Shown here in pieces: positions 13,124 to 15,345 of a stretch of DNA of 64,000 nt (position 1 is the stretch's first letter; every line of letters starts with the position of its first letter). A program made the translations under genes and the position numbers. The stretch lies in NCBI GenBank assembly GCA_963760485.1, contig CAVXDP010000002.1:2362-66361 (forward strand), written 5' to 3'. A model generated the notes under the pieces. That model did not search any database. It was not told the origin of the DNA and saw only the letters and a program-made list of their open reading frames with translations. The stretch is from Candidatus Bathyarchaeota archaeon. GTDB lineage: Archaea; Thermoproteota; Bathyarchaeia; 40CM-2-53-6; CAVXDP01.

Positions 13124-15345
13124 TCAAACCCTGTCCATGAAATCTTCAGCCTTCTGCGGTTCCGGTGGGAGACCTTTCCTCTTCCTAATATCTGTCATTA
13201 CCTGAGTGAGCATTGAGACTGGAACTGGAGACCACCTAGCGAATTCTAGACCCCAGAAAGCTCTTCCAGCCGTTGCACCTCGCAGAATTTCTGATAAATC
13301 GAATGTTTCAGCCGTCGGCATTTCTCCAACCACATACATCAAGTGACCTTTCTGATCAACCGACACGACCTTGCCTCTCTTCTGTGATATCACACTCGTG
13401 ACTTCGCCAAGTAGATCAGGCGGAATCTTCGCAGTCATCCTCTGAACGGGTTCTAGGAGAGTAGGCTGCGCTGAAAGGAAAGCTGCAAACAGGGCTCTTC
13501 TCATCATAGGCATTAGCTGGGCGGGGCCACGATGGACAGGATCCTCGTGAAGACTAACATCCGAGATCCTGGTTTTCACTCCCCTTATCTGCTCATAGGC
13601 TAGAGGACCCTCTTTGATACCCCATTTGTAACCTGCAATTATCATGTCCTTGCCTTCCAGTAAGTACTGGGCACCCTTTGTCACTTCAGTTAGAATGTTG
13701 CAGGTATCGTCAAGTGCCCAGATTCCTCGTGACTCGTCCGTGTCCCATCCCTTTTCTCTTAGGAGTTTTGCCATCGCATGTTTGTCCATGTACTCGCTGA
13801 TCTTGCCTGTCTTCATCATGTCGACAACTTCTTCTTGGAGTGGCTCAACGCTAACTTTTACCTTATTGTGTTTGTTAGGTGACTTTCCTTCGAATGGTCC
13901 AGCTGAGGATTTTATGCTCTCTCGGTAAAGAACTATGGGTTCTGATGTCGTCACTTCGAGACCTGTCTTCGTTATCAGGGTTGTAGCAATCTCGAGGTGA
14001 AGTGTACCCATTCCGGAGATGAGATATTCCCCAGTCTCCTCGTTTATTTTTGTGACAAGGTTAGGATCTTCTATCGTGAGCTTTCTCAACGTCTCAACGA
14101 GCTTGGGCAGATCACGGCTATACTTCGGTTCAACTGCGATTGTGACAACGGGTTCCGTGACATAGCTGACAGCTTCGAACGGAGCCACGTCCTTTGTGCT
14201 AGCTAACGTTTCTCCAGCTCTTGCCGCTTGGATACCCAAGACTGCAGGGATGTTTCCAGCTCCAAGTGAACCAATGACTTCACGGTATGGCCCCATGTAG
14301 ATGCAAACTTGCTGAATCCGCGCTTCGGATTTCGCTCCAATGAGGTACACCGTTTCGCCTTCGCGAAGTGTTCCTGAGAACAATCTTCCAGTCGCTCGCC
14401 ACACCGGCCTGCGGATCCACCACTATGTTTACAATACACATAACCGCGGGGCCATTGTCATCACAATTCATCATCGACTGTCCAATTTCACTGTTCACGT
14501 CTCCATGCCATATCTTGGGAATCCTATACTTCTGGGCCACATGTGGCGGTACCATCGATCCGATACACATGTTCAGTATAGCTTCATGTAACGGACTTTT
14601 GTCACGAAGTTCCTCAACTTTACCAATGTTGTAGGAGTCCACGACATCAGAAAACTTGACTCCTTTGGATTTTGCAATCTCACTTGTAAAACCCCATCTG
14701 TCTTTCGCTGAGCCCATGGCGACGGTGTTTGTAGCAAAACTAACCTTCCAATTCTCTCGAAACTCGGGTTCAGCGTAAAGTTCGATAAGATCGTTGAAGT
14801 CCTTAATTATCCTCGCGATTCTTTCCTGAATCTGCTCCGCAGTCAGTTTCAGTTCCTTGATCAGACGATCTATCTTGTTTATGTACAGAACTGGTCTAAC
14901 TCTCTCTTCAAGAGCCTGTCTAGTCACCGTTTCTGTCTGAACCATGACTTCCTCAACAGCGTCAACCACCACCACAGCTCCGTCAATTGCTCTGAGTGAT
15001 CGAGTGACTCTACCCGAAAAATCAACGTGACCAGGAGTATCGATAAGGTTGATCACGTAGGGCGTGCCATCTTTCTCGTGAAGCAAGCTAACGTTGGCGG
15101 CCTTGATCGTCATCTGTCGCTTCTGTTCTTCTTCCATAAAGTCTAGAGCCAGAGCTGAACCAGCCACGGATGGCGATAACATCCCGGCAGCAGCAAGGAG
15201 AGAATCGCTCATCGTGGTTTTTCCATGATCAACATGAGCAATGATACCAATATTATCCGGACGTGGAAAACTTCTACGCCTTTCGGATTTGGTCCTTGTT
15301 CTGTATGATCTTCATTATCTCCGTGGTTGTTTTGTAACGAACCAT
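13124..15345 (-). CDS. fusA: translation elongation factor aEF-2, interrupted by a 28-nt insert and one +/-1 shift
   Basis: [17 protein letters not shown], NKIDR and the diphthamide loop LHEDPVHRGPAQ. Exon 1 is 15345..15282 (MVRYKTTTEIMKIIQNKDQIR). The insert is 15281..15254. The gene then follows the frame of ORF 14280..15212 and shifts near 14395 into ORF 13124..14404. Confidence 0.9.
15254..15281 (-). other. candidate BHB (splicing-endonuclease) intron within the aEF-2 coding sequence
   Basis: 28 nt containing an in-frame TAG. 3-nt bulge AAA, 4-bp helix UCCG/CGGA, 3-nt bulge UAA, flanked by 5-bp inner and 6-bp outer helices. Excision restores [16 protein letters not shown]. Confidence 0.6.

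Follow-up and report, generated by a model that had tools for sequence, protein, structure and literature searches.

The gene for the translation GTPase aEF-2 in the 64,000-nt stretch of Bathyarchaeota DNA analysed here (the window) is interrupted by 28 nt (15281-15254, minus strand) that very probably constitute a genuine bulge-helix-bulge (BHB) intron in the coding sequence, passed down within a large clade of Bathyarchaeia. To our knowledge, cbf5 of some Crenarchaeota has for over twenty years stood alone as an archaeal protein-coding sequence with an endonuclease-spliced intron. The literature searched reports BHB introns of mRNAs only in cbf5 and in one Haloferax 5'UTR, in line with the novelty claimed in an earlier note on this DNA, and we take the EF-2 intron to be real and unreported. 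It would bring to two the protein-coding sequences of Archaea known to depend on BHB splicing, the new one encoding a highly expressed, essential translation GTPase of another lineage.

Exon 1 (15345-15282, minus strand) comprises the ATG at 15345, 20 further codons (MVRYKTTTEIMKIIQNKDQIR) and the first A of an Asn codon. The intron follows (AGGCGUAGAAGUUUUCCACGUCCGGAUA; the letters of the insert read AGGCGTAGAAGTTTTCCACGTCCGGATA), and then exon 2 (15253-13124, minus strand), which extends from (A)AU AUU GGU to the stop codon and holds the P-loop. Left unspliced, the window sequence continues after exon 1 with AAG GCG TAG. This in-frame UAG (15276-15274) lies within the insert, three codons past the Arg codon, and ends translation after 23 residues. 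Deleting the 28 nt in silico gives CAA ATC CGA AAT ATT GGT and restores the EF-2 frame. The start codon, exon 1, the insert and the P-loop exon all lie where the earlier note had placed them, and the junction with its intronless-type frame was reproduced.

The host gene is a canonical aEF-2. Its in silico spliced product is colinear with intronless Bathyarchaeia EF-2, and exon 1 corresponds to the N-terminus of proteins P0034, P0035 and P0051. Against the aEF-2 equivalog TIGR00490, the spliced protein covers model positions 2-720 of 720 at 880 bits (cut-off 738), and exon 2 encodes the domain IV diphthamide loop (H-x-D-x-x-H-R-G) as SLHEDPVHRGPAQ. As a point against the intron reading, an EF-2 paralogue has been reported in a few Bathyarchaeota (PMC6143161); the full-length TIGR00490 match and the diphthamide loop identify the gene as aEF-2 rather than this aEF-2p. 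The window also carries a diphthamide synthase gene (17268-17951).

The RNA around the insert can form a BHB motif. In its central 4-bp helix, an exonic UCCG (15287-15284) within the Ile-Arg codons AUC CGA pairs with an intronic CGGA (15259-15256). The flanking 3-nt bulges are AAA on the 5' side (15283-15281), with a predicted cut between 15282 and 15281, and UAA on the 3' side (15255-15253), with a predicted cut between 15254 and 15253. An inner helix joins GGCGU (15280-15276) to ACGUC (15264-15260) and includes one G-U pair. The weak, wholly coding outer helix links the two exons through ACCAAA (15293-15288) and U(A)UUGGU (15252-15246), in which A15288 pairs with U15252, A15251 is bulged, and 15289-15293 pair with 15250-15246. 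All pairs and bulges proposed earlier thus exist, with reservations about the outer helix and one neighbouring pair. The RNAfold minimum-energy structure of 15303-15236 shows the hairpin (-16.4 kcal/mol, z = -2.5) and departs in that detail, shifting A15288 to U15255, which lengthens the helix to 5 bp and widens the 3' bulge to 4 nt. The 3-4-3 register is favoured because the position of U15255 is occupied in 31 of 34 relatives by an A, which cannot pair with A15288.

Across species the outer helix consists of one A-U pair, a bulged A and then 3-5 pairs, and 74.5% of its cells pair. It is coding, is present in intronless genes too, and is absent from the RNAalifold prediction. Since this helix is weak and exonic, the motif is better described as a BHB that is relaxed on its 3' side. 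Relaxed motifs are reportedly accepted by heteromeric or epsilon2 endonucleases (PMC5829648), and the weak outer helix would be compatible with enzymes of this kind. On its own, a relaxed BHB pattern is nothing unusual, at about 450 per strand per 64 kb, just as in shuffled sequence. Shuffling the 28 nt 400,000 times gave 55 cases of a BHB whose inner helix had 5 bp or more and whose cuts restored the frame exactly (P ~1.4e-4).

The insert is found well beyond this assembly. An independent short-read MEGAHIT contig from a 98%-identical strain (L085) carries the identical 28 nt, so that the insert is no assembly artefact, and has an intact exon 2 of 695 aa. The sole indel between the two is an extra G at about 14397 (minus strand), outside the intron and present in the window copy only, which frameshifts exon 2 of the window's own EF-2. 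Leader, exon 1 and intron show zero substitutions between window and contig, against a 2.3% difference elsewhere. Among 80 species-level relatives, 34, all Bathyarchaeia, have an insert of 25-44 nt at the same codon; with the window they form a set of 35 intron-bearing genes. Insert lengths are spread over the three classes modulo 3 (9/13/13, n = 35), and close relatives can lie 1 nt apart (30 nt in L033 and 31 in L034; 27 in L002 and 26 in L007). A strict 3-4-3 BHB is present in 32 of the 35, where 3-9 bp of inner helix abut the 5' bulge; L002, L007 and L011 each have one inner-helix mismatch. Cleavage between the second and third bulge residues is the rule for such motifs (PMC2738675). Applied here, as the earlier note had done for the window, it predicts exactly the 28-nt excision and restores the frame in all 35 species, everywhere as R-N-[I/M]-G save for R-A-V-G and R-D-V-G in L060 and L063. 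A covariance model of the intron core, run against the window with filters off, matched the EF-2 site only (35.9 bits), and the intron is therefore no repeat scattered along the window.

The compensatory changes that the earlier note had hoped to find in relatives are present. All 34 distinct sequences pair in the central helix, L060 and L063 by way of a CG-to-GC swap, and double-sided changes occur in six of seven aligned column pairs of the inner helix. None of 500 shuffles reached the observed covariation scores. Sliding the partner strands out of register lowers pairing from 85% to 25-41%, and RNAalifold independently recovers the central helix, the 5' bulge and the inner helix. UCCG is found in 33 of 35 intron-bearing and 12 of 39 intronless genes (Fisher P ~1e-8, uncorrected for phylogeny), and the exon codons are apparently constrained by the central helix. 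Every one of the 35 introns contains an in-frame stop, which in 33 is a TAG at the same codon, kept even where its pairing partner varies. The start codon of exon 1 is conserved, and with a pN/pS of 0.23 and a pS of 0.68 (34 intron-bearing species), exon 1 is evidently under purifying selection.

EF-2 might instead be made without any splicing, from an internal start at Met36 (MSDSLL) or, in some lineages, at the ATG of N-M-G, with exon 1 serving as an upstream small ORF and the hairpin as a translational control element. Gene callers do yield such products, in that 70 of the 120 closest proteins begin past the P-loop and 32 at xGIIAH. An in-frame ATG (N-M-G) also directly precedes GIIAH in 12 of 35 species, where a product lacking only the first 23 residues is possible in principle. 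However, a start at Met36 would lose the G1/P-loop, yet the P-loop segment upstream of it is perfectly conserved, and in 22 of the 35 species the P-loop frame has no start codon upstream. The low pN/pS of exon 1 and the match of its peptide to the universal aEF-2 N-terminus also speak against an internal start. Moreover, the cut geometry that yields the exact Asn codon across all 35 species (with the substitutions of L060 and L063 given above) would have to be a coincidence. We therefore regard an internal start as improbable. Quite improbable, too, is removal or bypass of the insert in the RNA by a route other than EndA and RtcB, for example by another structure-specific nuclease and a ligase. 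The non-canonical outer helix would suit such a route. The features that are conserved are nevertheless the defining ones of an EndA substrate, namely 3-nt bulges on either side of a 4-bp helix, each cut past its second nucleotide. BHB introns also occur in tRNA of this genome, and the insert is far below the size of a group I or group II intron.

Translational recoding, be it programmed frameshifting, read-through or ribosome hopping over the 28 nt, is suggested by the stop just past the break and the stable hairpin, which superficially resemble T4 gene 60. Programmed frameshifting or bypass calls for a fixed offset and for matched take-off and landing codons that relatives share. Here the needed shift varies, with 0, +1 and -1 about equally frequent, and CGG (in CCGGA), the sole CGN codon on which a ribosome could land, does not share the frame of GGU AUC. 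Where the insert measures 27 or 30 nt it keeps the frame and yet contains TAG, and the insert displays RNA-helix covariation without codon conservation. We rejected programmed frameshifting and bypass on the varying offset and the misplaced landing codon, and recoding of any kind is very improbable. The least probable account, and an extremely improbable one, is an assembly artefact or a decaying EF-2 pseudogene. Lesions nearby lend it some colour: a G is inserted at 14397, and the DNA ligase gene next to EF-2 has four 1-nt frameshifts. Against it stand the identical insert in the independent assembly, its presence in 35 species with both exons under purifying selection, and the lack of a second EF-2 locus of the same assembly among the 80 best loci. 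Together, the conserved insert, the mixed frame classes, the covariation, the in-frame stops and the selection on exon 1 exclude a pseudogene, frameshifting and ribosome hopping.

Under the preferred reading, a BHB intron, the pre-mRNA would fold so that exonic UCCG (codons AUC CGA) pairs with intronic CGGA, giving a 4-bp helix with a 3-nt bulge on either side, a variable hairpin inward of it and a weak helix between the exons outward. The tRNA-splicing endonuclease (EndA) would cleave past the second nucleotide of each bulge, and an RtcB-type ligase would seal ...CGA A to AU AUU GGU..., which would complete the Asn codon and establish the EF-2 frame. Unspliced mRNA would terminate at the conserved UAG after 23 residues. 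As most species have no start codon before the P-loop in the unspliced mRNA, full-length GTP-binding EF-2 would come from the spliced mRNA only. We infer splicing in vivo, the identity of the acting enzymes and the dependence of EF-2 synthesis on the tRNA-splicing machinery from sequence. Among 30 window ORFs scanned there is no EndA or RtcB gene. An exact-pattern scan for the spliced junction in JGI metagenome contigs, a collection of uncertain transcript content, gave four matches, all from intronless lineages or, in one case, bacterial EF-G. A profile of the spliced N-terminus retrieved only short fragments of intronless lineages from a collection of 5.8 billion proteins, the transcript content of which is likewise uncertain.

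Further insertions occur close to this site. L003 has a second, independent BHB intron seven codons downstream, and five soil Bathyarchaeota in the data set have an intein in the EF-2 P-loop. With two intron sites and one intein site within about 14 codons, the EF-2 G1 region is an insertion hot-spot in Bathyarchaeia.

We speculate, as an unlikely possibility, that the intron may act as a checkpoint that couples EF-2 output to tRNA-splicing/RtcB capacity, and that it is one case of wider, unannotated mRNA BHB splicing in Bathyarchaeia. The conserved UAG may then enforce the dependence on splicing. Hints in this direction are the TAG codon shared by 33 of 35 species, the second intron of L003 and the substitution-free stretch of leader, exon 1 and intron.

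Introns in cbf5 of Desulfurococcales and Sulfolobales were reportedly described by Watanabe in 2002 and Yoshinari in 2006. In the cbf5 pre-mRNA, the crenarchaeal endonuclease cuts the intron at a relaxed BHB (PMC2738675). Like the EF-2 intron, that of cbf5 is short, lacks an ORF, interrupts a protein-coding sequence at a relaxed BHB with predicted cuts between the second and third bulge residues, and has been gained and lost patchily within a clade of TACK-group hosts (Yokobori 2009, PMC2738675). The two differ in gene and lineage: cbf5 is a pseudouridine synthase, whereas EF-2 is the translocation GTPase and the lineage here is Bathyarchaeia. The EF-2 intron also lies one codon before the first G1-motif strand and has a near-universal in-frame UAG. 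Splicing of cbf5 is backed by cDNA and in vitro work, whereas that of EF-2 is predicted from sequence. A family relationship to the cbf5 intron was rejected; with aEF-2 as the host gene, the mechanism is analogous only. In Haloferax volcanii, a BHB intron resides in the 5'UTR of the HVO_1309 mRNA (Schwarz 2020, PMC7714728). There, too, the tRNA-splicing endonuclease acts on an mRNA, as predicted for EF-2, but that euryarchaeal leader is untranslated, whereas the EF-2 intron breaks the reading frame and the protein would require splicing.

Non-canonical introns of pre-tRNAs, such as that of tRNA-Gly(CCC) at 6536-6495, share the 3-4-3 geometry, similar sizes and presumably the same enzymes. The EF-2 substrate is instead an mRNA with no tRNA body, and one strand of its central helix is constrained by codons. 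HAC1 and XBP1, processed by IRE1 and a tRNA ligase or RtcB, provide another parallel in their spliceosome-independent, structure-guided excision, the resulting change of frame and the sealing by a tRNA-type ligase. The XBP1 intron is 26 nt long. IRE1, however, cuts twin stem-loops in a regulated stress switch, whereas the EF-2 intron shows no sign of regulation. The P-loop inteins of translation GTPases resemble the EF-2 insert as selfish elements lodged where a gene is most conserved, but they are translated and removed from the protein, whereas the EF-2 insert is untranslatable and covaries at the RNA level.

The 35 natural sequence variants already map the structural requirements of the intron. 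The case makes it possible to test how mRNA splicing proceeds alongside coupled transcription-translation in archaea, whether EF-2 output depends on EndA and RtcB, and how such introns are gained and lost. EF-2 has served as a phylogenetic marker (PMC3082918, PMC6143161). Because gene callers do not model BHB introns in mRNA, 107 of the 120 closest public EF-2 entries are mis-called: 70 lack the P-loop, 32 begin at GIIAH, and five run through the intron.

The interruptions of the adjacent DNA ligase gene were considered as introns and rejected; they are four simple 1-nt frameshifts, contiguous in the protein. The earlier note had described the neighbouring lesions as 1-nt homopolymer indels, which is not clearly so. 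Synteny of the ligase region with relatives was assessed, and similarity is too weak to be of use. The same note had suggested looking for BHB motifs in broken ORFs. Scans of the window, run with and without a filter that joins ORFs, brought up no other convincing mRNA intron; bridges between adjacent ORFs arise by chance, and a further intron could escape such scans.

ARAGORN and Rfam (gathering threshold), applied to the whole window, returned no tRNA or other RNA family and missed the tRNA-Gly(CCC) at 6420-6551, which was recovered only after its D-loop intron had been deleted manually. This tRNA, noted earlier near 6.5 kb, indeed has a 42-nt D-loop intron (6536-6495) with 3-4-3 geometry, in addition to a canonical 14-nt intron. 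The D-loop intron means that the same genome needs BHB splicing at a non-canonical site, which indirectly implies a splicing endonuclease of broad specificity in the host.

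The EF-2 (fusA) reading frame on the minus strand is split by 28 nt that an earlier note had taken for a bulge-helix-bulge (BHB) intron in the mRNA, and reading the strand over 12900-15500 alongside the ORF table bore out all of its coordinates. The exon-1 ORF opens at ATG 15345 and encodes MVRYKTTTEIMKIIQNKDQIR, followed by AAG GCG and TAG (15276-15274); unspliced mRNA would give only a 23-residue peptide. The remainder of the gene lies beyond the insert (15281-15254, AGGCGTAGAAGTTTTCCACGTCCGGATA) in the +1 frame relative to exon 1, and both ORF table and sequence agree with the note that no start codon precedes the P-loop in this frame. 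Excision in silico joins CGA A to AT ATT GGT and restores the frame, again as proposed. After this splicing and removal of one extra base (14397), the 730-aa product scores 880 bits (cut-off 738) against the NCBIfam equivalog TIGR00490 (aEF-2), aligning to model positions 2-720 of 720. The diphthamide loop HEDPVHRG is present, and the closest database proteins are EF-2 of Candidatus Bathyarchaeia.

All base pairs of the proposed motif are present, and the RNAfold minimum-energy structure is the same hairpin (-16.4 kcal/mol, z = -2.5), but it pairs A15288 with U15255 rather than U15252. The first 3'-bulge nucleotide is A in 31 of 34 relatives (U in the window and locus L035, C in L001). An A there cannot pair with A15288, which favours a 4-bp central helix between two 3-nt bulges (3-4-3). 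The outer helix expected to close the 3' bulge is weak, lies in the exons and also occurs in intronless genes. The EF-2 motif is thus relaxed on its 3' side and resembles the relaxed motif of the cbf5 intron. A relaxed BHB pattern alone has no significance, as it occurs about 450 times per strand both in the window and in shuffled sequence. A BHB with exactly frame-restoring cut sites arose in 55 of 400,000 shuffles of the insert.

In 80 species-representative genomes we measured how far the Gly codon of EF-2 lies from the Arg codon. The distance is 6 nt in 39 intronless loci; in 34 others it is 31-38 nt, except for 50 nt in L021. These 34 loci carry inserts of 25-32 nt (44 nt in L021) at the identical codon, with structure preserved through compensatory helix changes, as the earlier note had envisaged for related genomes. 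Insert lengths, window included, spread over the three mod-3 classes (9, 13 and 13 of 35 sequences) and differ by 1 nt between sister lineages (30 nt in L033 vs 31 in L034, 27 in L002 vs 26 in L007), so the insert cannot be translated. A stop codon in the exon-1 frame lies inside all 35 introns, and 33 share a TAG at codon +3 from the Arg. This TAG is retained even where it lacks a pairing partner, A15275 of the window standing opposite C15265. Strict 3-4-3 geometry is found in 32 of the 35 sequences, and the other three have one inner-helix mismatch. Cuts after the second nucleotide of each bulge restore R-N-[I/M]-G across the 35, with variants in L060 and L063, where the predicted junctions read LR-A-VG and LR-D-VG in place of IR-N-IG. 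Some intronless lineages also have Asp at this position.

In a MAFFT alignment of the 34 distinct sequences, the central helix is paired in every one. L060 and L063 change UCCG/CGGA to UGCG/CGCG, a CG-to-GC compensatory change, and both-sided changes affect six of seven inner-helix pairs. None of 500 shuffles reached the observed pairing or covariation, and sliding the 3' partners by 1-3 columns lowers pairing from 85% to 25-41%. Given no structure, RNAalifold recovers the central helix, the 3-nt 5' bulge and the inner helix from the intron-bearing sequences; it does not predict the outer helix in them.

Exon 1 keeps its start codon and a conserved peptide (pN/pS 0.23, with pS 0.68; the ratio for codons 36-75 is 0.11). 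The Ile-Arg codons supply the exonic side of the central helix, and UCCG is found there in 33 of 35 intron-bearing genes vs 12 of 39 intronless ones, where AUCAGG, AUACGA, AUUAGG, GUUAGA and others are used (Fisher P about 1e-8, phylogeny ignored). Translation without splicing could begin at Met36; that start would delete the P-loop, yet the P-loop is perfectly conserved upstream of it. Initiation at the N-M-G ATG directly before GIIAH is possible and the codon is available in 12 species, but it leaves exon-1 conservation and the BHB unexplained. ATG, GTG and TTG are absent before the P-loop in the exon-2 frame in 22 of 35 species. Frameshifting, read-through and hopping were rejected, as the shift they need is not the same from species to species and the insert changes in the manner of RNA helices. 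A pseudogene or assembly artefact is excluded by the relatives, exon selection and an independent assembly.

Strong comparative evidence thus supports a BHB intron. Very probably, the archaeal tRNA-splicing endonuclease EndA would cleave the EF-2 pre-mRNA at the bulges and an RtcB-type ligase would join the exons, making the EF-2 frame. We infer this because the conserved features are those that define EndA substrates, and because of the non-canonical BHB in tRNA-Gly. Spliced EF-2 RNA was not found in metagenome contigs or a protein collection, both of uncertain transcript content. The tRNA-Gly(CCC) gene (about 6420-6551, minus strand) has a 14-nt canonical 37/38 intron and, as the earlier note had recognised near 6.5 kb, a D-loop intron (42 nt, 6536-6495; GUCC.AGA...GGAC.AAC) with 3-4-3 geometry and no outer helix. 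ARAGORN and Rfam (gathering threshold) missed this tRNA, which was recovered after manual removal of the D-loop intron. This gene means that BHB splicing outside the canonical site must already take place in the same genome.

The insert is no artefact. Database protein P0001 (695 aa, 98% identical) comes from L085, an independently assembled ENA contig of a 98%-identical strain (k141_4884435, ERZ27247924), which has zero differences from the window over leader, exon 1, the 28-nt insert and P-loop. Against L085, 2.5 kb of the window show 52 substitutions and one indel; 15466-15205 has no substitutions, and all 52 fall in the remaining about 2.25 kb. The indel, an extra G near 14397, frameshifts exon 2 in this assembly only, while that of L085 is intact (695 aa). 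The intron does differ from neighbouring 1-nt lesions, but the homopolymer origin suggested for those does not fit the one inspected, since 14397 lies outside any homopolymer. The ATP-dependent DNA ligase gene (15650-17258, plus strand) has four 1-nt frameshifts, near 15760, 15960, 16330 and 16510, and the protein is contiguous across each. This density is unusual, since other parts of the window have long, unbroken ORFs, and it may stem from faulty local assembly or from genuine decay.

Among the 120 closest EF-2 entries in public protein collections, the N-terminus is complete in just 13. The other 107 are mis-called because gene callers do not model the BHB intron: 70 begin at the post-P-loop Met (MSDSLL) and lack the P-loop, 32 begin at xGIIAH, and in 5 the exon-2 frame was extended upstream through the intron (...PEYIGIIAH). 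Some contigs are labelled bacterial (Methylomirabilota, Saccharimonadales, Acidoferrum, Dormiibacterota) yet encode archaeal EF-2. In a neighbour-joining tree of 250 exon-2 residues, which covers one gene and is indicative only, nearly all intron-bearing genes fall in one large Bathyarchaeia clade, with three exceptions inside it (L005, the soil clade L019-L027, and L003). L060 and L063 are placed apart, but the AGCGUAG start and TAG position are the same in their intron, which points to a single origin followed by several losses and not to repeated insertion. A covariance model of the intron core matched nothing else in the window besides the EF-2 site, so the intron is no dispersed element. 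In L040 (1400-1500), exon 1 is apparently shortened to MKIVMNKDQIR (11 codons) after unrelated sequence, which may result from rearrangement or misassembly, or may be a true truncation of the N-terminus.

L003 (JAVZFM010000049.1, hot-spring Bathyarchaeia) lacks the intron between IR and N. It carries a different 42-nt BHB intron (252-293), placed 7 codons downstream where it separates His from Val in AHVDHGK, with a GCCC/GGGC central helix, a 9-bp inner helix and in-frame stops; predicted splicing restores AHVDHGKTT. By its sequence this is a second, independent EF-2 intron site. A P-loop intein, recognised by ...SFDVYDLTVPENHTFVANGMVVHN directly followed by TTMTDSLL, occurs just upstream of locus position about 1500 in L039, L045, L046, L048 and L050, from soil Bathyarchaeota BA_2, BA_21, BA_22, BA_24 and 13_1_40CM_3_52_10. 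One clade thus has an intein in the EF-2 G1 region, where other clades have BHB introns.

The novelty claimed in the earlier note stands in open-access text, where the only mRNAs described with BHB introns are cbf5 and, in its 5'UTR, Haloferax HVO_1309. The cbf5 intron is known from Desulfurococcales and Sulfolobales. Schwarz 2020 (PMC7714728) names the cbf5 mRNA as the one additional BHB intron to date, and a 2025 structural paper on splicing endonucleases cites the cbf5 work alone. A dedicated study of archaeal EF-2, Bathyarchaeota included, mentions no introns, truncation or inteins (PMC6143161), and the open-access literature yielded nothing relevant on BHB motifs or introns in connection with EF-2 or Bathyarchaeota. 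The EF-2 intron would thus add a case of known BHB splicing, and the mechanism is not new.

The window also encodes an exosome/SBDS/proteasome-alpha/RNase P p30 cluster, a eukaryote-type topoisomerase IB, two thermosome subunits, a diphthamide synthase, and Fe-S and hydrogenase-type subunits, a gene content that fits a Bathyarchaeia archaeon. The diphthamide synthase gene (17268-17951, plus strand; Pfam Diphthami_syn_2, E = 1.8e-74) lies ~2 kb from EF-2, the modification target of its product. Upstream of EF-2 on the minus strand (15346-15455) is a TATA-like box, AAAACTATAAAAAC (about 15453-15440), followed by a leader of ~100 nt. One hairpin in the leader is GGTTCC...GGAACC (about 15420-15399) and a second is AACCAGC...GCTGGTT (about 15393-15370), both kept in L001 and L035 via compensatory changes.
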